Shown piece by piece: positions 1 to 6,156 of a stretch of 6,156 nt of DNA. The notes under the pieces were generated by a model. That model saw only the letters and a list, made by a program, of their open reading frames with translations. It searched no databases and was not told the DNA's origin. The stretch is from a virus. The stretch is taken from IMG/VR virus record IMGVR_UViG_3300020030_000031, positions 1 to 6,156 of that record. One strand, written 5' to 3'. Made by a program: the position numbers and the translations under genes. Numbering within the stretch: the first letter of the stretch is position 1; the number at the start of each line of letters is the position of its first letter.

Positions 1-121
1 AATCAAACATGAGAATAAGGGTATTATCAAAGAAATCAACTCGGAAATGAGGTAGACTACCACAGGTAGCGACGAGTTCATAAATTTCCGAATGGTCAAC
101 GTAGAGCGAATCGCTAATGAA
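1..121. repeat. Terminal direct repeat, copy 1; identical to 6036..6156 (assembly overlap of a circular genome)
   Basis: I compared 1..121 with 6036..6156 base by base and found 121/121 identity. The offset of 6035 nt gives the unit genome length. Confidence 0.95.
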
Positions 122-271
122 AGAACTATTTAGGAAACGCGCGATGGGGGTGTCCGTGAGAGCGCTGAGCGGAAGGGATACAAATTGATCATCCTTGAGG
201 TAACCTACCTGGGCGAAGTCAATTTTAAGAGCCGGGTTAATTCGACGAATAACAACATGAATCTGTGTCAT
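1..271 (-). CDS. Hypothetical protein ORF107, N-terminal 90 codons. The CDS crosses the circular junction and ends at 5983, for 107 aa in total.
   Basis: This ORF is absent from the supplied track because it runs off the window edge. A minus-strand ATG at 271..269 opens a frame that stays open for 90 codons (MTQIHVVIRRINPALKIDFAQVGYLKDDQFVSLPLSALTDTPIARFLNSSFISDSLYVDHSEIYELVATCGSLPHFRVDFFDNTLILMFD). Position 1 is the first base of the next codon. Through the repeat the frame continues 6035->5986 (FNLDCDEGPSEKERKRS) to TAA at 5985..5983. It starts 11 nt downstream of ORF106 on the same strand. Composition looks globular and I recognise no family. Confidence 0.5.
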   Translation of the reverse strand, partial: MTQIHVVIRRINPALKIDFAQVGYLKDDQFVSLPLSALTDTPIARFLNSSFISDSLYVDHSEIYELVATCGSLPHFRVDFFDNTLILMFD

Positions 272-282
272 AGTAATGTAAT

Positions 283-603
283 TTAAATTTGAGATTGAAA
301 TCTGAGATAAAAACGCTTCCAGGCGTCGGAATACTTTCTCCAAAAATCATAACCCTCGGGCGTCGTGTCAAACAAGAAAGCGGTAGAAATGAGGTAGGTA
401 GGGCCTAGACTCGGGTTGCAAAGAGAACGCCGAATGTGGGCGCGCAAACGATCACGAAAACCCCCGTAAGGCGAAACGACGACATCGTAGTTCGTCTTAA
501 AAGCAACGAATATTCCTTGGCGGACGAGCCACTCAGTAAAAGCGTAATCGAGCACGTCGACAATCAAGTCGCCAGCCTTGAAGTACTTACTTCTTTTTTT
601 CAT
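283..603 (-). CDS. Hypothetical basic protein, 106 aa (ORF106)
   Basis: ATG-initiated ORF on the coding strand with TAA at 285..283. About 17 K/R versus 10 D/E. It is tightly packed with the downstream ORF107 (11-nt spacer). I recognise no motif. Confidence 0.6.
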   Translation of the reverse strand: MKKRSKYFKAGDLIVDVLDYAFTEWLVRQGIFVAFKTNYDVVVSPYGGFRDRLRAHIRRSLCNPSLGPTYLISTAFLFDTTPEGYDFWRKYSDAWKRFYLRFQSQI

Positions 604-672
604 AGTATTGTGGTTATTGGTTTACAACGCAAAGATGCAACAAAAAGAACAAACGATAAAGTTCAAAAAGCC

Positions 673-693
673 GAGGGAATTGTTCAATTCCTC
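673..693 (-). terminator. Weak hairpin plus T-run overlapping the VP2 stop codon; possible leaky intrinsic terminator
   Basis: The sense strand reads GAGGAATT-GAAC-AATTC(C)CTC, then GGC, then TTTTTG. That is an 8-bp AT-rich stem with one bulge, followed by a 5-T run after a 3-nt spacer. The stem is weak and overlaps the TGA at 686..684. Confidence 0.25.
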
Positions 694-1940
694 CTAAAAT
701 AACTGCGGCGGGTGTATGTAGCACCAATTTGATCTCCGGAAGGGCCGTAAACGTCGCGCATCTCGTCGTAACCAGCAGGTGAGGCTGCGCCTTTGGTAAG
801 AGCTACACTGCTAATAGCGAGAGCCCCGGCAAGGGCCGTGCGAGCCATCGAATAACCAAAAGCATTCTTTTCTGATCGGTTAGAAAACCATTGAGCAGAA
901 AGACTCTGCGACGCATTGGCGGCGGCAATACCCACAAGATGTTCGTGTATCTGACGGCCAGTTAATTTAACAGTTTTACCAGTAGGCTTGCCTGATTCAG
1001 TAACCTGGGGGACTTCAATTTCGGCCTCCCAGTTGAGGCGAAACCACTCACGAAGATCAGACAGACGAACTTTGGCTATAGCAAACTCGGCATTCGCGAG
1101 GTCGCCTGTTGCGGCAGAACTGTAGGCGGCAGCGTAATCGCGAGCAATTTGTGCGGCGTAAATTTGATCAAAATACTTTGAATTGAATTCCCTGATCTGA
1201 ACAGCCTCCTCGACATGTTTACTGTATTGGGCAACAAAATCTTGAAATTTATAAGTAGCCATCAAATCTGCGTATTCAGAGTCGGCCATATGAATATCAG
1301 CAAGAGCGCGATTAAGATCAGCAAGAGCGGCAGCGTTGTTGACGTCGTGCGTACGAATCTGCTTATCCAACTCGTCAATGTCTTTACGCCACTCAACAGT
1401 ATGTGTATTTCCACGAAGCATAGCAGCCTCGGCGTTGTCACGATTAGAAGCAGCATCGTTACGATCAACCGTAGAACGCGCAAGCATATTCTGCGCAATA
1501 GCAGTAGGATCGGCAGTAGCAAAACCACCGGGAGCAACGGGCGAGCCGCCCGAGGGACCAGAGGCAGAGGGCATAGAAGCAGAGCCGCCGGACATGGTGG
1601 CGTTAACGCCGACGCCCGAGGAGCCAAGTACGGCAGCGGGCGTTACGCCAGCTTTCAAGTAGCGGTCGAAAACTTTCGTAGGGTCATTATATGCATTCTC
1701 GTAATCAAACTGTTTCTGCCAATTAGCATAGGAAAGTTCAGACTGCTTCTGCATTTGCTCGAGAGCATACTTTTGCTGAAGCTTCATTTGTTTTTGCTGA
1801 AAACGCCATTGGCGACGGGCGTTCATACCGCCAAAAAGCTGGCCGAGAGCACCGGTAATTAGACCGGTCGCGCCAGTAGATGCAGACGATTGACCAAGAG
1901 CCTGTCCAAAAGAAGCAGCAGCAACAGCAGGAATAGGCAT
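684..1940 (-). CDS. VP2: Microviridae VP2 (phiX174 H-like) DNA pilot / minor capsid protein, 418 aa
   Basis: The N-terminus is Ala/Gly-rich (MPIPAVAAASFGQALGQ...GALGQLFGG) and is followed by a Q/K-rich helical segment. The segment YENAYNDPTKVFDRYLKAGVTPAAVLG matches my recollection of the conserved VP2 core of gokusho/alpa-like microviruses (N-x-Y-N-x-P ... R-x-x-x-A-G-(L/V)-(N/T)-P). A G/S/P low-complexity linker (GGSASMPSASGPSGGSPVAPGG) follows. Size and the position next to the capsid module fit. Confidence 0.8.
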   Translation of the reverse strand: MPIPAVAAASFGQALGQSSASTGATGLITGALGQLFGGMNARRQWRFQQKQMKLQQKYALEQMQKQSELSYANWQKQFDYENAYNDPTKVFDRYLKAGVTPAAVLGSSGVGVNATMSGGSASMPSASGPSGGSPVAPGGFATADPTAIAQNMLARSTVDRNDAASNRDNAEAAMLRGNTHTVEWRKDIDELDKQIRTHDVNNAAALADLNRALADIHMADSEYADLMATYKFQDFVAQYSKHVEEAVQIREFNSKYFDQIYAAQIARDYAAAYSSAATGDLANAEFAIAKVRLSDLREWFRLNWEAEIEVPQVTESGKPTGKTVKLTGRQIHEHLVGIAAANASQSLSAQWFSNRSEKNAFGYSMARTALAGALAISSVALTKGAASPAGYDEMRDVYGPSGDQIGATYTRRSYFRRN

Positions 1941-1941
1941 A

Positions 1942-2133
1942 CTAAATGTGAGTTAAATTGTTAGAACGAATAATGTAGTCAACGCGAACAGTGTCGATAT
2001 GAACGCCGCTACGCTGCATCCTAGCTTGAGCTGAACAAGAAGCAAGAAAAAAAGTAGCCAACGCAGCAATAATAGATGAAATGAGCGTCCAAAAAGCCTT
2101 TGATTTATAGAAAGGTTGTTTAACGTCTGACAT
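1942..2133 (-). CDS. Small predicted lipoprotein, 63 aa (signal peptide plus lipobox L-A-S-C; about 31-aa mature peptide)
   Basis: The protein is MSDVKQPFYKSKAFWTLISSIIAALATFFLAS|CSAQARMQRSGVHIDTVRVDYIIRSNNLTHI. It has a Lys-containing n-region, a 17-residue hydrophobic core, and a lipobox L30-A31-S32-C33 (codons 2046..2035). ATG is at 2133..2131. TAG at 1944..1942 lies one nucleotide before the VP2 ATG (TAG-T-ATG). Confidence 0.6.
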   Translation of the reverse strand: MSDVKQPFYKSKAFWTLISSIIAALATFFLASCSAQARMQRSGVHIDTVRVDYIIRSNNLTHI

Positions 2134-2154
2134 GATATTAAAAATTTAGGGGAA

Positions 2155-2339
2155 GCTACGGTGCCGCACCCTCACTACGTTCGGGGCGGTTCTCCGAACC
2201 GCGAAATGCGTCACCTCGCCACAATGGTGTAAACAAATTGAATAAAGAACGATAGAAAAATGCGCGGCCACTCCTGCAATCGTTACCAATAACCTTTAGC
2301 AATTCACGAACTCTTGCAAAAGGGGTCCGCGCACGTAGC
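2155..2339. other. 185-nt domain closed by an imperfect inverted repeat (2155..2172 pairs with 2321..2339)
   Basis: On the plus strand the pairs are 2155-2160 GCTACG with 2334-2339 CGTAGC, 2162-2164 TGC with 2331-2333 GCA, 2166-2167 GC with 2329-2330 GC, and 2168-2171 ACCC with 2323-2326 GGGT. T2172 can pair with A2321. That is about 16 bp with three small bulges, and the ends coincide with the ATG and TAG of ORF61. Confidence 0.45.
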
Positions 2340-2341
2340 AT
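2156..2341 (-). CDS. Possible small arginine-rich protein, 61 aa (ORF61). The alternative reading is a non-coding structured region.
   Basis: ATG at 2341..2339 and TAG at 2158..2156. About 12 R/K versus 6 D/E. There are 22-nt spacers to both neighbouring genes, so accepting it would make the genome uniformly compact. A small basic DNA-condensing protein (phiX174 J analogue) is expected in microviruses. Against it, first-codon-position purine content is only about half, and the interval is dominated by secondary structure. Confidence 0.35.
   Translation of the reverse strand: MLRARTPFARVRELLKVIGNDCRSGRAFFYRSLFNLFTPLWRGDAFRGSENRPERSEGAAP
2180..2205. other. GC-rich hairpin inside the 2134..2363 region
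   Basis: The plus strand reads TTCG-GGG-CGGTTC-TCC-GAACCG-CGAA. That is a 6-bp stem (7 bp if G2186 pairs with C2202) with a 3-nt loop, extended by 4 bp across a bulge. Confidence 0.5.
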
Positions 2342-2363
2342 ATATCGTCAAGTAAAGAATGTA

Positions 2364-2660
2364 CTATTTTTCTTCAGACTTAGAGGTCTTCGCAGCAGCA
2401 TTCGATCTATCTATTTCTGAATCAATGAGTTCCTGACCAACCTCGAGACCATCGAACTTATCCATACGGGAGAAGGAATTAGGGTCGAAATCAATCTCGG
2501 GATTGAATTTTTCGCCCTTGTCGAAATCAGACGAGGACGCCTCGACATCTGGGCGACCAGGAAGAACATCGACGGAACCAGAACCGTTAAGAACAGAAAG
2601 AATACGCTGACCACGAGAAACATAGGTAGGAGCGTCCTCAAGTAACCAATTAAGTGCCAT
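2364..2660 (-). CDS. Acidic 98-aa protein immediately downstream of VP1; candidate scaffolding protein (VP3/D/B-like role by position and charge only)
   Basis: ATG at 2660..2658 lies 12 nt after the VP1 stop, and TAG is at 2366..2364. About 20 D/E versus 11 K/R, with repeated D-F-D / E-I-D motifs (SSSDFDKGEKFNPEIDFDPNSF...DSEIDR). I recognise no sequence family. Confidence 0.6.
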   Translation of the reverse strand: MALNWLLEDAPTYVSRGQRILSVLNGSGSVDVLPGRPDVEASSSDFDKGEKFNPEIDFDPNSFSRMDKFDGLEVGQELIDSEIDRSNAAAKTSKSEEK

Positions 2661-2672
2661 AAAATCAGTGTA

Positions 2673-4463
2673 TTAACGATTAGACAAACGGGTTGCAAAT
2701 GTTTTATTAACCAAGTTCTTCTTCTGGACAGAATACGAAATATTGACAAAGAAATTATCCTCTAGCTTGGAGGCAAACGGGGCGTTTACCTGATCAATAT
2801 CCACAAACAAAAGGGAATAATACTGATTATAGCTCGCCGACAGAACGCGCTGCTGAACCCAATAAGAATAAAGAGGAATGTTGTTATAGGCTTTTTGAAA
2901 TCGAGTCAGCTGGCCAAGAACCTCATCAAACGAGGACCGAAACTCATTGAAACACGGTTCGTAGGCTACAGCTTCTGAGGCCGAGGTGGTTCCGAATCCG
3001 AATTGAAATCCGGGAACATCCTGGTATCCAATATCATTATAGATCGGATTAAAATAATCGGCACCAGTATAATGAAGGTAGTCGGGATAAACACCTGCCC
3101 AATAGTAGACGGGGCGAATACTCAGCATATCAATCATATAGCCAGGCTCGCGGAAGTAATAAGATTGACGACGACCGAGGCGATCATTGAAGGCGATTGC
3201 ACCACCTTGTTGTCCCAGGGGGCCATTTACGCTTGGACCAGAAAAATTATTTTGTCCGGCCTGATTCATGACAATCTGAACGTTAACTGTCTGGGATGCG
3301 CTAAACAACAATTTGGGCCGATCGACGTGTTCGATTTTCGAAGCAAAAAAAGTCTCCAGCCAGTCGCTGTAACGAGAACCTCCAGCGCCGAGCAGATCCT
3401 TGTATTCCTGAAGACGCGAAGCAATAGCCAGCTGCGGCACGGTCGAGACACCGGACATGGAAACACCCTCGGAGCTACCGACAGGAAGCAATCGGCTATA
3501 GCGATCGGGATTCGAAGGTATAACGGCCAGCGGATGGGCGACAAGGAACGCTCCAAGCGTAGTAACAGTCGTAGAGGCAGCGCCAACAGCGAATTGATTT
3601 GCGGGACCCGCGGTGGACAGCGAAGTGTTTCCGGGATAAATGGTAGAGACGGGGTAGCCATCTCTGGATGCGGTAATCGTAGCGCCGAGATCTGAAAGTA
3701 ATATCTGCGAAAAAAGATTTCCCCTGTTATATGTATTGTTCGACGACGACACAGCCGAAGGATAAAACTGACTCTCAAAATAAGCATCGAGGAATTCGAG
3801 GTTTCCAAATCTTTGCGAGAAAAACCTCGACGTGTCACCGAACTGAAGAGTATTATACGCGGTACCGGTGCTGTTCGGGATGAAATACCAACTACTAGGC
3901 CAAGCGAAAGAATAAAGTCCCCACTGGGAATAACTATAATAATTGCGAACGATGTCCCAATAAGCGAGATAAGAATCGGCGGTACACCAGCCTAAAGGAT
4001 ACCCCAACTGGGCCGTTGTAAGATTAGCAGTCACAGGGACATTACTCGAGGTCGGGGTCGGGATTGACCCAGGAATGACACGCAACCAACGAAGCAGCGA
4101 ATTAGAATAAGGATAATTATTAGTCGTAAACTCGTAACTACCCGTAGAAGAAGCAGCAATAAAATTCAAACTCAAATCGTTCATATCAAACTTACTGCTA
4201 TTCGTCCGCATTTCAGGGTGATACAACTGGAGAGGCACCCAAAAACGATGCAAACGAATAGTATAGGGATTGAACGTCGGGACGGCGAGCGGATTACTAC
4301 GAACGTCGATCCCCTGCTCGATAGATACACGATCCCGAGCGTTAATAAAATCAATTCGCACCGGATATAAAATACCCGGCGTACACGTAAAGGCCTTACT
4401 CTCAGGGACATCGTAACGAGAGTAGCCATTGACGGCATGTGAAATAAAGGGCTGTTTTCCCAT
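2673..4463 (-). CDS. VP1: Microviridae major capsid protein VP1 (phiX174 F-like), 596 aa
   Basis: This is the largest ORF. The N-terminal pattern FTCTPGILYPV...RSNPLAVPTF...IRLHRFWVPLQLYHPEM matches the conserved microvirus capsid N-terminus as I recall it (G-x-L-x-P ... R-x-x-P-L-x-x-P ... H-x-F-(F/W)-V-P-x-x-L). The C-terminal region is rich in aromatics and Tyr (YYFREPGYMIDMLSIRPVYYW). Its size suits the gokusho/alpa-like groups, which carry large loop insertions. Confidence 0.93.
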   Translation of the reverse strand: MGKQPFISHAVNGYSRYDVPESKAFTCTPGILYPVRIDFINARDRVSIEQGIDVRSNPLAVPTFNPYTIRLHRFWVPLQLYHPEMRTNSSKFDMNDLSLNFIAASSTGSYEFTTNNYPYSNSLLRWLRVIPGSIPTPTSSNVPVTANLTTAQLGYPLGWCTADSYLAYWDIVRNYYSYSQWGLYSFAWPSSWYFIPNSTGTAYNTLQFGDTSRFFSQRFGNLEFLDAYFESQFYPSAVSSSNNTYNRGNLFSQILLSDLGATITASRDGYPVSTIYPGNTSLSTAGPANQFAVGAASTTVTTLGAFLVAHPLAVIPSNPDRYSRLLPVGSSEGVSMSGVSTVPQLAIASRLQEYKDLLGAGGSRYSDWLETFFASKIEHVDRPKLLFSASQTVNVQIVMNQAGQNNFSGPSVNGPLGQQGGAIAFNDRLGRRQSYYFREPGYMIDMLSIRPVYYWAGVYPDYLHYTGADYFNPIYNDIGYQDVPGFQFGFGTTSASEAVAYEPCFNEFRSSFDEVLGQLTRFQKAYNNIPLYSYWVQQRVLSASYNQYYSLLFVDIDQVNAPFASKLEDNFFVNISYSVQKKNLVNKTFATRLSNR

Positions 4464-4466
4464 AAA

Positions 4467-5537
4467 TTAAATGTTTAGTTGAAGTTTATAATGATCTCTC
4501 CAAAACTGAAGAATGTCCAGGTCTAGCCAAGTAGGTGGGTCGAAATCCGGCATCTTACGAGAGGACGCAGCGAAACGCATTATTTGCTTTTGCTCCCACG
4601 TATACGACGCTCTACAGGATACGGAGGAATTGAGGCCGAACCGCTCAACGCACAAAGACACAATACGCTTAACCAGAGAAGACTCGCTAAAACGTGAATA
4701 AGCATCAGCAGCGGTAATCGAGCGAATAACGTCGTCTTCCGGTTTAAGGTATCTAAGGTAATACCGAGGAATCGAGTAGTTATAATTGACGCGCTTCTCA
4801 AAATCGAAATAAGACCACGTCGAAGTACGAGCAGAAGGGCGAGGCTGATAACCAAGAAAATCACCAACGCCAGCAGATACGAATTTTCGCGTATAACGGC
4901 GATGTTGGAGGAGGCAAGATAAAGGTGTAAGGTTTCCATCTATGGTAACATATTTGTCCGAAATTTCTTCGGGATTAAATTGAATCTGTTTAGTAACATA
5001 CTTAACGCAATAACGAGCACGCTTATGAGTCGCCTTCGCCAACCACACAAAACCAAGATCTCGAACAGCCGATCGAATCTCGTTATACAGACAATTCGTG
5101 CCGAATAAAAAACCATGGAAATGCAGACGAGGCTCAGAGCTTATTTCCGGGTGAGTCCCAAACTCCTGGAAAAACGCGTGCTTGAAAGAATGTCCGAGCG
5201 TATGGCGGACGCGTTCGTTCCACCGTCGAATAAACGTAGAGGGGTTCTGTAATGCTTCATCGTAATACTTAGGAGCTATGGTTATTGTAATAAAAATAGC
5301 CTGCTGGGACTCGGCTTTACAACGAGCGAGTTCGCGCTCCAAGCGAACGAACCAATCATTACGCTGACGACGCAGACAGTCTTCACACTTTCCACACGGG
5401 ACCATGAGCCACTGACGCGCGATGTCCCAGGGGCGGAGCGCCAAAGCGGACTTTGCAACGTCCGAGCCATCACGACAGGGATTCTTCTTGTCGAAATAGC
5501 GACGATTACGTATCCATATGGGCGACGAACAAGGCAT
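4467..5537 (-). CDS. VP4: Rolling-circle replication initiator VP4 (phiX174 A-like, HUH endonuclease superfamily), 356 aa
   Basis: Motif order is diagnostic. N-terminal PCSSPIWIRN is followed by VPCGKCEDCLRRQRNDW. Motif I is AIFITITI. The HUH motif is L-H139-F-H141-GFLF (H codons 5123..5121 and 5117..5115). The double-tyrosine motif Y176-CVK-Y180-VTK (codons 5012..5010 and 5000..4998) has the same Y-x-x-K-Y-x-x-K layout as phiX174 gpA. Confidence 0.93.
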   Translation of the reverse strand: MPCSSPIWIRNRRYFDKKNPCRDGSDVAKSALALRPWDIARQWLMVPCGKCEDCLRRQRNDWFVRLERELARCKAESQQAIFITITIAPKYYDEALQNPSTFIRRWNERVRHTLGHSFKHAFFQEFGTHPEISSEPRLHFHGFLFGTNCLYNEIRSAVRDLGFVWLAKATHKRARYCVKYVTKQIQFNPEEISDKYVTIDGNLTPLSCLLQHRRYTRKFVSAGVGDFLGYQPRPSARTSTWSYFDFEKRVNYNYSIPRYYLRYLKPEDDVIRSITAADAYSRFSESSLVKRIVSLCVERFGLNSSVSCRASYTWEQKQIMRFAASSRKMPDFDPPTWLDLDILQFWRDHYKLQLNI

Positions 5538-5737
5538 TACAGGAGGCTTCTAAGACAGTCAAATCTAATAGCGGGATAATCGAGACGACAGCGAATGAGG
5601 TAATCATTAGCGGGTTCCTCGTCGGAAAACCAAGCGATAACAACTCGCTTTTTACCACGGTACGCTCCAATAGAAAAACGGTAGGGAATACTGTTAATCA
5701 CAGGAGAAAAACGGGGGCGAAAATCAAATATATCCAT
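5537..5737 (-). CDS. Hypothetical 66-aa protein overlapping the VP4 start (TAATG)
   Basis: ATG is at 5737..5735. The stop TAA at 5539..5537 shares its last A with the VP4 ATG at 5537..5535 (sense TAATG), an arrangement typical of translational coupling. It is the first gene after the structured intergenic region. I recognise no family. Confidence 0.55.
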   Translation of the reverse strand: MDIFDFRPRFSPVINSIPYRFSIGAYRGKKRVVIAWFSDEEPANDYLIRCRLDYPAIRFDCLRSLL

Positions 5738-5756
5738 AATCGTTAAACAATACTTT

Positions 5757-5785
5757 GCGCTTCGAAAGACGGTACTTTCGAGCGC
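5757..5785. other. Stem-loop (11 bp, one bulged T, 6-nt loop) 19 nt upstream of the ORF66 start
   Basis: The plus strand reads GCGC-T-TCGAAAG-ACGGTA-CTTTCGA-GCGC. Pairs are 5757-5760 with 5782-5785 and 5762-5768 with 5775-5781. Confidence 0.6.
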
Positions 5786-5805
5786 GAGAACTACTTCGTT
5801 CCGCC

Positions 5806-5846
5806 GGCCGACCGCCTAACGGCGGGGACGCTCCGCGTCTTCGGCC
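5806..5846. other. GC-rich three-way junction (Y-shaped) fold, 41 nt
   Basis: The outer stem is GGCCGA (5806-5811) with TCGGCC (5841-5846). Arm 1 is CCGCC-TAAC-GGCGG (5812-5825). Arm 2 is GACGC-TCC-GCGTC (5827-5839). That is 16 bp, 14 of them G:C, with single unpaired bases at 5826 and 5840. An extra CCGCC at 5801-5805 permits an alternative pairing. Confidence 0.6.
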
Positions 5847-5874
5847 TCCATGGCTCCACTTCGTGAGTCTATAT

Positions 5875-5890
5875 ACCGGATAAATCCGGT
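5875..5890. other. Short perfect hairpin ACCGGA-TAAA-TCCGGT
   Basis: It has a 6-bp stem and a 4-nt A/T loop. It lies between the terminator and the three-way junction. Confidence 0.5.
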
Positions 5891-5902
5891 GAGTTTGCGG
5901 AC

Positions 5903-5937
5903 AAAAACTCCCAGGGAGAGAAAACCTCTCCCGGGAG
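5903..5937 (-). terminator. Rho-independent terminator ending the genome-long minus-strand transcription unit
   Basis: The sense strand reads CTCCCGGGAGAGG-TTTT-CTCTCCC(T)GGGAG followed directly by TTTTTGT. That is a 12-bp GC-rich stem (5908-5912 with 5933-5937, and 5914-5920 with 5926-5932, with one bulge at 5913) and a 5-T tract (5907..5903). It lies 46 nt downstream of the ORF107 stop. Confidence 0.7.
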
Positions 5938-5982
5938 CATCACAGTTAAAGAACTCTTCCACCAAGAGGACGGGTAACGATC

Positions 5983-6156
5983 TTAGCTCCTCTTCCTTTC
6001 TTTTTCCGACGGGCCTTCATCACAATCAAGATTAAAATCAAACATGAGAATAAGGGTATTATCAAAGAAATCAACTCGGAAATGAGGTAGACTACCACAG
6101 GTAGCGACGAGTTCATAAATTTCCGAATGGTCAACGTAGAGCGAATCGCTAATGAA
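5983..6156 (-). CDS. C-terminal part of ORF107 (same CDS as 1..271). Bases 6036..6156 duplicate 1..121 and 5983..6035 is the unique 3' end.
   Basis: The frame is continuous through the repeat and ends ...LILMFDFNLDCDEGPSEKERKRS with TAA at 5985..5983. Confidence 0.5.
   Translation of the reverse strand, partial: FISDSLYVDHSEIYELVATCGSLPHFRVDFFDNTLILMFDFNLDCDEGPSEKERKRS
6036..6156. repeat. Terminal direct repeat, copy 2; identical to 1..121
   Basis: 121/121 identity with the first 121 bases of the window. Confidence 0.95.

Follow-up and report, generated by a model that had tools for sequence, protein, structure and literature searches.

Lysis has been worked out mechanistically for only one microvirus, phiX174 (PMC3394797). 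How other microviruses leave their hosts is largely unexplained. The release protein of the colicin plasmid pCloDF13 has a stable signal peptide that is itself active (van der Wal et al. 1994, 1995, as far as these are summarized in PMC5727409), and phage o-spanins are recognized by a mature region rich in proline, by periplasmic cysteines through which dimers form disulfides, or by both (PMC6139136). The only isolated Bacteroides microvirus, phiHBP1, carries an M15 peptidase (PMC13064476). Our search of the literature found no paper describing a microvirus lipoprotein. Here we compare with these systems a 63-codon open reading frame (ORF), ORF63, in a 6,156-nucleotide (nt) stretch of viral DNA (IMG/VR record IMGVR_UViG_3300020030_000031, positions 1–6,156; hereafter the window). 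ORF63 lies directly upstream of the gene for the DNA pilot protein VP2 and is predicted, from the ORF list, its homologues and the ratio of non-synonymous to synonymous substitution (dN/dS), to encode a small lipoprotein precursor.

Conservation of ORF63

ORF63 (1942–2133, 63 codons and a TAG stop) lies on the minus strand, as does every gene of the window, and translates as MSDVKQPFYKSKAFWTLISSIIAALATFFLASCSAQARMQRSGVHIDTVRVDYIIRSNNLTHI. Codons 1–32 (2038–2133) encode a basic n-region with three lysines within the first 12 residues (K5, K10 and K12), followed by a hydrophobic stretch of 20 uncharged residues (A13–S32) ending in L-A-S; together they are predicted to form a type II signal peptide or a transmembrane helix. 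The next codon, TGT (2035–2037; aca on the plus strand), encodes Cys33, the predicted site of lipidation and cleavage, and completes the lipobox L30-A31-S32-C33. Codons 34–63 (1945–2034) encode the remainder of the mature peptide, 31 residues counting the cysteine, predicted to be a short cationic (+2) beta-hairpin with the motif R-x-G-V-H-x-D-T-V. The basic n-region, the lipobox with Cys33 and the mature length of about 31 residues had been claimed in an earlier sequence-only reading of this DNA and can be read off as described there, whereas its hydrophobic core of 17 residues proves to be a run of 20 uncharged ones. The same reading placed the ORF63 stop 1 nt ahead of VP2, which is what we see: at the junction (1938–1944, minus strand), TAG (1942–1944) is separated by a single base (1941) from the ATG (1938–1940) of VP2 (684–1940, minus strand; PHROG 8689 ‘pilot protein for DNA ejection’, E 1.5e-8), and TAGTATG or TAATATG recurs at this point among relatives. 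Because the stop lies one base ahead of the VP2 start and the junction is conserved, it is plausible that ORF63 is made together with VP2 and so co-expressed with the virion module.

The lipobox motif by itself is not evidence beyond chance. ORF63 was the sole one of the window's 41 ORFs of at least 40 amino acids to pass a PROSITE-type lipoprotein rule (K or R in the first seven residues and Cys at position 15–35; ORF63 has K5 and Cys33), but shuffled genomes yielded 0.24 rule-fitting ORFs each, so that the motif proves little and would be compatible with a chance ORF, or a mis-called gene, that happens to contain a lipobox. It is conservation that makes such an accident hardly credible. Among 79 distinct DNA copies of ORF63 (IMG/VR loci plus the window), variability was 0.354 at third codon positions versus 0.075 and 0.038 at first and second positions, pN/pS (the corresponding ratio for polymorphism) was 0.13 and dN/dS was ∼0.06, while the other five frames over ORF63 gave dN/dS of 0.15–4.9 and pN/pS of 0.23–4.2. 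This strong purifying selection, specific to the frame of ORF63, refutes the reading as a chance ORF. A protein search also returned 356 homologues, the best 120 of which are 84–97% identical, and 65 clusters came up when 1.84 billion cluster representatives were searched with a profile. In GenBank, the nearest records are Microviridae genomes from faeces of pig, deer, rodent, lemur and tortoise, and an identical ORF63 protein is already on public record.

The position of the gene is kept as well. By tblastn, 32 of 45 GenBank records found with at least 47% VP1 (capsid protein) identity matched ORF63 directly. The remaining 13 records represent nine distinct viruses (Dulem virus 210 accounts for five records, one of which was examined), and all nine carry a small ORF that ends at VP2 and has the same N-terminal helix and cysteine with a different C-terminal peptide, one such alternative type reading ...KKFWTLVASIVAALAAYFATSC and then TTRHYVVQSASSIKSGDTTRTTITYEQVGNFKRP. 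A place beside VP2 is thus retained in every examined relative at that level of VP1 identity; one relative with 44% VP1 identity, bajarodmic virus 974, has no ORF63-like gene. The sequence-only reading had named a lack of conservation of the ORF or its cysteine in related genomes as refuting; instead, all nine tblastn-negative viruses have an equivalent, and Cys33 is kept in 79 of 79 close copies. On these comparisons we judge ORF63 to be genuine and part of the core gene set of one clade of gut microviruses, a judgement that rests on conservation (frame-specific selection and Cys33) and not on the motif.

Half of the database entries for ORF63 are 100 residues long, consisting of a stretch that starts MLRARTP... 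and continues into ORF63. We rejected this longer form. Its extra 37 codons sit in near-invariant DNA that has no codon periodicity across 75 loci, which argues for ORF calling through a noncoding element, and in the window the MLRARTP... stretch is parted from ORF63 by a 95-nt insertion (both described below).

Lipobox, signal helix and mature peptide

Three alignments of diverse family members, with 26, 28 and 52 sequences, all show Cys33 invariant; no other column is invariant in the smallest and the largest of them, and in the 28-member one A24 is invariant too. Cys33 is in every case preceded by S, G or A in the family alignments, and at least 90% of members keep K12, F14, W15, A24, F29 and D47. 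The PROSITE core pattern for lipoproteins is fitted by 55 of the 65 clusters (defined at 50% identity), across which the uncharged run before the cysteine is almost always 19–20 residues and the residue after it is A, S, T or G, never D. The LASC of the window conforms to the lipobox consensus [LVI][ASTVI][GAS]C (PMC6139136), and three nr records from virome assemblies are already named ‘lipoprotein’. The invariant cysteine, the small residue ahead of it and the widespread fit to the core pattern support the lipoprotein claim of the sequence-only reading well, and ORF63, judged by its sequence and that of its relatives, almost certainly encodes a membrane- or envelope-targeted lipoprotein precursor. 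As to where the product would go, the surface-export signal of Bacteroidota lipoproteins is acidic (PMC5080379). Residues +2 to +6 of ORF63 are SAQAR, with no Asp at +2 and no acidic export signal of this kind, and a periplasm-facing product is therefore to be expected.

The part of ORF63 that would be expected to serve export alone is the part that has changed least. dN/dS is 0.045 over the signal region (codons 1–33) versus 0.083 over the mature part, and synonymous change is equal in the two (0.64 and 0.63, respectively), so that the constraint acts on the protein and not on the DNA. Because selection holds the signal-peptide helix more tightly than the mature peptide, we take the helix to be more than an export tag. 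The plain, cleaved signal peptide of the earlier account is weakened by this, since no part of the protein is more constrained than the N-terminal helix, although the invariant cysteine still argues for lipidation. On the one hand, the helix KKFWTLVAAIVAALAAFF is nearly unchanged across clusters that share less than 50% identity, where it stands ahead of at least four unrelated C-terminal peptides. On the other hand, the mature motif R-x-G-V-H-x-D-T-V-R-V-D/E-Y is found behind a quite different helix in an Alistipes prophage and in the proteins P0147, P0153 and P0165. With the helix kept across at least four mature types and the mature motif across two signal types, both halves look functional and appear to behave as modules.

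Mature peptides of the family are 27–38 residues long (median 31), carry a net charge of 0 to +6 (median +2) and contain almost no proline or extra cysteine. AlphaFold2 predicted a confident helix for residues 12–34 of ORF63 (predicted local distance difference test, pLDDT, ∼90) and a weak hairpin pairing 38–41 with 51–54, with pLDDT of ∼72 for the hairpin in a long relative. A search of solved structures with ORF63 gave best hits of only E = 0.3 and E = 3.

In ∼30 clusters of other microviruses an ORF63-like N-terminus continues for 170–225 residues (for example 1512–2114 of locus L085 and 3262–3804 of L086; proteins P0125–P0168). The middle of these long forms, 110 Ser/Thr-rich residues, is unconserved, predicted to be disordered and overlaps another gene in a different frame, and they end just before VP4 in a conserved basic tail, ...RRGGRRG.PRPK.K.IPLGGSHL, preceded by a C-terminal hydrophobic stretch of only 11–16 residues. 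The long frame stays open in 6–56% of synonymous resamplings, and the long forms could be either functional fusions or tolerated read-through. We did not accept them as proof of a spanin-like architecture, given the unconserved, disordered middle and the frequency with which the frame stays open. The repeat proteins P0127 and P0172, which also emerged from the deep search, were set aside as score artefacts.

Within the type-A clade, to which the window belongs, ORF63 is 88–90% identical and VP4 88%, compared with 69% for VP1 and 56% for VP2, and identities range over 65–95% for the capsid and 37–92% for the pilot protein. The type-B mature peptide goes with a VP4 lineage of its own (68% identity). 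ORF63 thus appears, from these identities, not to track the presumed host-recognition proteins within the type-A clade, and its near-constancy beside varying VP1 and VP2 speaks more for a conserved host target than for a receptor-specific block.

A scan of one genome per species yielded one ORF63 relative, on a 53.5-kb contig of an Alistipes metagenome-assembled genome, with the sequence MDLQKLIDWLKTQPVWIRIVSILIALLAIIIGLFSTSC followed by SSAFKLHRSGVHIDTVRVEYQGRTNNYQKFEI. On this contig (CALUMM010000015.1 of Alistipes sp., about 7900–12600 of locus L004) lies an integrated microvirus, recognized as such because bacterial genes flank it on both sides: a HIT-family gene on one and metal ATP-binding cassette (ABC) transporter genes on the other. 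Its gene order is an ORF63 homologue with a different signal helix, a 99-amino acid ORF, VP2, VP4 and VP1. In the window itself, none of nine gene starts has a Shine–Dalgarno-like 4-mer within 25 nt upstream, and all leaders are AT-rich. AT-rich leaders lacking a Shine–Dalgarno motif fit translation initiation in Bacteroidota. Given these leaders and the relative integrated in the Alistipes contig, the host is probably a member of the Bacteroidota.

ORF119 and other features of the window

The replication initiator VP4 (4467–5537, minus strand; Pfam REP_ORF2-G2P, PHROG 942) contains a second, overprinted membrane-protein gene, ORF119 (4580–4939, minus strand; 119 codons), whose product begins METLHLYLASSNIAVIRENSYLLALVIFLVISLALLLVL and ends PYPVERRIRGSKSK. 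The frame is open in 75 of 76 close relatives and is kept in relatives down to 42% VP4 identity. Synonymous codon diversity in VP4 falls from 0.45 to 0.175 exactly over codons 200–320 (Mann–Whitney p = 2e-27, 62 genomes). The product has two strongly hydrophobic stretches and a basic tail; database searches gave only five protein matches and no family match. Conservation was examined for every alternative-frame ORF, and all the others, in VP1, VP2, ORF98 and ORF63, were dismissed since they are broken in most relatives. We judge ORF119, on this pattern of codon diversity and retention, to be a genuine overprinted gene under selection with a layout analogous to that of phiX174 E. It is a candidate for a lysis gene of the E-like or holin-like kind, and might be either a partner of ORF63 or its rival. 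With ORF119 under selection, ORF63 is no longer the only possible lysis gene, and the case for a lysis role of ORF63 by elimination, which the sequence-only reading had leaned on, does not hold.

Between ORF63 and an acidic 98-residue ORF (ORF98, 2364–2660, minus strand) lies a near-invariant noncoding element (2243–2363, minus strand), with variability of ∼0.04 in all three phases across 75 loci and no codon periodicity. It probably carries cis signals (a promoter and/or a replication origin), and contains a long GC-rich stem and the sequence ACTTGACGATATATGC, which we take to resemble the origin nick region of phiX174. The insertion that parts this element from ORF63 (∼95 nt, about 2146–2242) is GC-rich (56%) and contains the hairpin GCGGTTCGGAGAACCGC; of 83 related loci only 19 have it, among them that of the distant Dulem virus 225. 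Rfam gave no match anywhere in the window, the insertion included, and a scan for sigma-70 promoters and terminators, which is unsuited to Bacteroidota promoters, showed no enrichment. The window further contains the major capsid protein gene VP1 (2673–4463, minus strand; Phage_F, PHROG 514) and two small minus-strand ORFs of 106 and 66 residues.

ORF62 (5946–6134) was considered as a transmembrane partner of ORF63 and rejected, as stop codons break it in relatives and only its last 24 codons are conserved. These form a 24-codon ORF of their own (5946–6020, minus strand), MKARRKKKGRGAKIVTRPLGGRVL, conserved with R/K and I/V exchanges, and probably encode a J-like basic DNA-binding peptide.

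Possible functions of ORF63 and comparison with known systems

By analogy with the colicin release proteins, we tentatively favour a role for ORF63 as a late lysis or release factor, probably acting alongside ORF119. The host's Sec, Lgt and LspA would export, lipidate and cleave the precursor, which would leave a cationic lipopeptide of 31 residues, shaped as a beta-hairpin, on the periplasmic face of a membrane. This tiny lipidated peptide and the signal helix that stays behind in the inner membrane might then both damage the envelope, as in colicin release proteins, and ORF63 would probably assist the inner-membrane ORF119 rather than being the sole lysis gene. What suggests such a role is that a mature length of ∼31 residues and a constrained signal helix parallel the pCloDF13 protein with its active signal peptide (as the cited summary has it), that the near-constancy of ORF63 within its clade points to a conserved host target, and that the genome offers no endolysin: Pfam and PHROG detected no peptidase or lysozyme domain in any ORF of the window. 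An M15 peptidase is likewise absent from all 124 ORF63-family loci, and phiHBP1, which has one, carries no ORF63-like gene.

Several observations weigh against a release function, or against the processing it presupposes. For a lipoprotein signal, 19–20 residues make a long hydrophobic stretch, which could instead be an anchor that is not cleaved, and a conserved A-Q-A four residues past the cysteine offers a possible signal peptidase I site in type-A members. ORF119 is the better candidate for the main lysis gene. In sequence, ORF63 matches neither colicin lysis proteins nor another lysis family; Pfam, PHROG, NCBIfam and PADLOC gave no meaningful match for ORF63 or its relatives, colicin lysis proteins and spanins included, and Pfam Lysis_col, with E values up to 0.1 admitted, hit neither ORF63 nor a single one of 52 family members. 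(Weak family matches, to DUF5455, YgdI/YgdR, LptM, RexB and others, were discarded as sub-threshold and not common to members, DUF5455 appearing in one of 52.) Release proteins use a phospholipase route in E. coli, which the Bacteroidota, the probable hosts here, may or may not share. Finally, bajarodmic virus 974 (locus L131), which lacks an ORF63-like gene, has a 185-codon hydrophobic ORF in an alternative frame of VP4 (5093–5650); from this single case, overprinted VP4 membrane proteins may be more widespread than the lipoprotein.

A possibility nearly as likely as lysis is superinfection exclusion or receptor masking in the manner of T5 Llp or Cor, whereby the lipidated hairpin would bind an outer-membrane receptor or entry route and so stop both superinfection and the loss of progeny on debris or vesicles. 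ORF63 would be, like Llp, a small phage lipoprotein that faces the periplasm for want of an acidic surface-export signal (PMC5080379); its homologue is the first gene of the integrated Alistipes prophage; and the mature domain switches type between sister clades behind a constant signal helix, as expected of a specificity determinant. There is also a weak match of the lipobox and mature region to the PADLOC defence candidate PDC-M02A (E 0.02 for ORF63 and 0.0028 for P0129), though it extends to only six of 52 members, and we found no paper mentioning that family. However, the protein is nearly constant within the type-A clade while capsid and pilot vary widely, so that it seems not to track the host-recognition proteins, the tight constraint on the signal helix would be left unexplained, and a universal, strongly constrained accessory gene would be unexpected in a 6-kb genome. 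ORF63 matches no known exclusion family, Llp/Cor lipoproteins in Pfam and PHROG among them. In a further reading, ORF63 would be an uncleaved N-terminal anchor whose helix is the effector, either a ‘protein antibiotic’ for single-gene lysis, like phiX174 E or levivirus LysM, that binds an inner-membrane cell-wall enzyme, or a small pore-former. The 19–20 uncharged residues of the helix suffice to span a membrane, it is rich in the small residues (AAIVAALAA) typical of helix packing, AlphaFold2 renders it as one long confident helix, and it is the most conserved part family-wide, across unrelated C-termini, with low dN/dS at normal synonymous change. Yet a plain anchor does not explain an invariant cysteine at the helix end with S, G or A before it, the signature of lipoprotein processing, nor a mature motif conserved behind a different helix, and ORF63 resembles neither E nor another known lysis protein; we consider this reading unlikely.

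It is improbable that ORF63 is a spanin-type outer-membrane lipoprotein that links to ORF119 and disrupts the outer membrane as the last step of lysis, with the long relatives as one-piece spanins. Its signal is of the outer-membrane type, ORF119 provides a conserved inner-membrane protein in the same genome, and the ∼30 long-form clusters recall the route from o-spanin to u-spanin by loss of a stop codon (PMC6139136). But there is neither an endolysin nor an adjacent i-spanin-type gene, no spanin model matched, the mature peptide has no proline-rich region or extra cysteine, and in the long forms a short hydrophobic stretch follows an unconserved middle that is predicted to be disordered, in a frame that may be tolerated read-through. 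Very improbable, in our estimate, is a decoy prolipoprotein, a new type of ‘protein antibiotic’ for single-gene lysis, in which the near-invariant helix and the invariant lipobox would jam host lipoprotein maturation (Lgt, LspA or Lol) as an encoded counterpart of globomycin and the collapse of the envelope would free the virions. Such a decoy would explain both why the signal region is the most constrained part and why the cysteine is never lost.

Animals and humans harbour gut microviruses of the ORF63 clade in abundance, and the hosts of these viruses are probably Bacteroidota. The viruses offer two cloneable candidates for action on the envelope, a clade-core lipoprotein gene of 63 codons and a membrane-protein gene of 119 codons hidden in the replication gene, and through either one a new mechanism might come to light, whether of exclusion or of breaching the envelope of Bacteroidota. 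That the signal helix is so conserved is unusual and merits explanation by itself.

Set against described systems, ORF63 resembles Rz1-type o-spanins and T1 gp11-type u-spanins in being a small phage lipoprotein with a canonical lipobox and with short and long homologues. It differs from o-spanins in having no i-spanin gene or holin–endolysin cassette near it (its neighbours are the noncoding element and the VP2 pilot gene) and in having neither proline nor a second, periplasmic cysteine in the mature peptide; it differs from u-spanins in ending after 31 mature residues with no hydrophobic C-terminus, and even in the long forms the extension is predicted to be disordered and the hydrophobic stretch is marginal. 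With T5 Llp and Cor it shares small size, a product that probably faces the periplasm and a location beside the gene for an entry protein, but its mature part is about half the size of theirs, shows no homology to them and does not seem to covary with capsid or pilot protein within the clade. Like phiX174 E, it is a small, membrane-targeted microvirus protein whose N-terminal helix is the most conserved part. E, however, is overprinted in gene D, uncleaved and has no lipobox, whereas ORF63 is free-standing with an invariant lipobox cysteine, and the counterpart of E by layout in this genome is ORF119 inside VP4.

The closest functional analogue would seem to be the colicin release protein, such as that of pCloDF13. 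There are differences: these proteins are plasmid-encoded in Enterobacteria and show no sequence similarity to ORF63, which is viral with a host that is probably one of the Bacteroidota, and the mature part of ORF63 is, unlike theirs, a predicted beta-hairpin with a conserved G-x-H-x-D-T motif. Both are nonetheless very small lipoprotein precursors that yield a mature lipopeptide of ∼30 residues (∼28–33 in the release proteins, 31 in ORF63 and at the family median). In release proteins the signal peptide is functional, according to the summary in PMC5727409, and in ORF63 the dN/dS of the signal region suggests that it may be so too; and as release proteins are expressed together with the product to be released, so, we propose, is ORF63.

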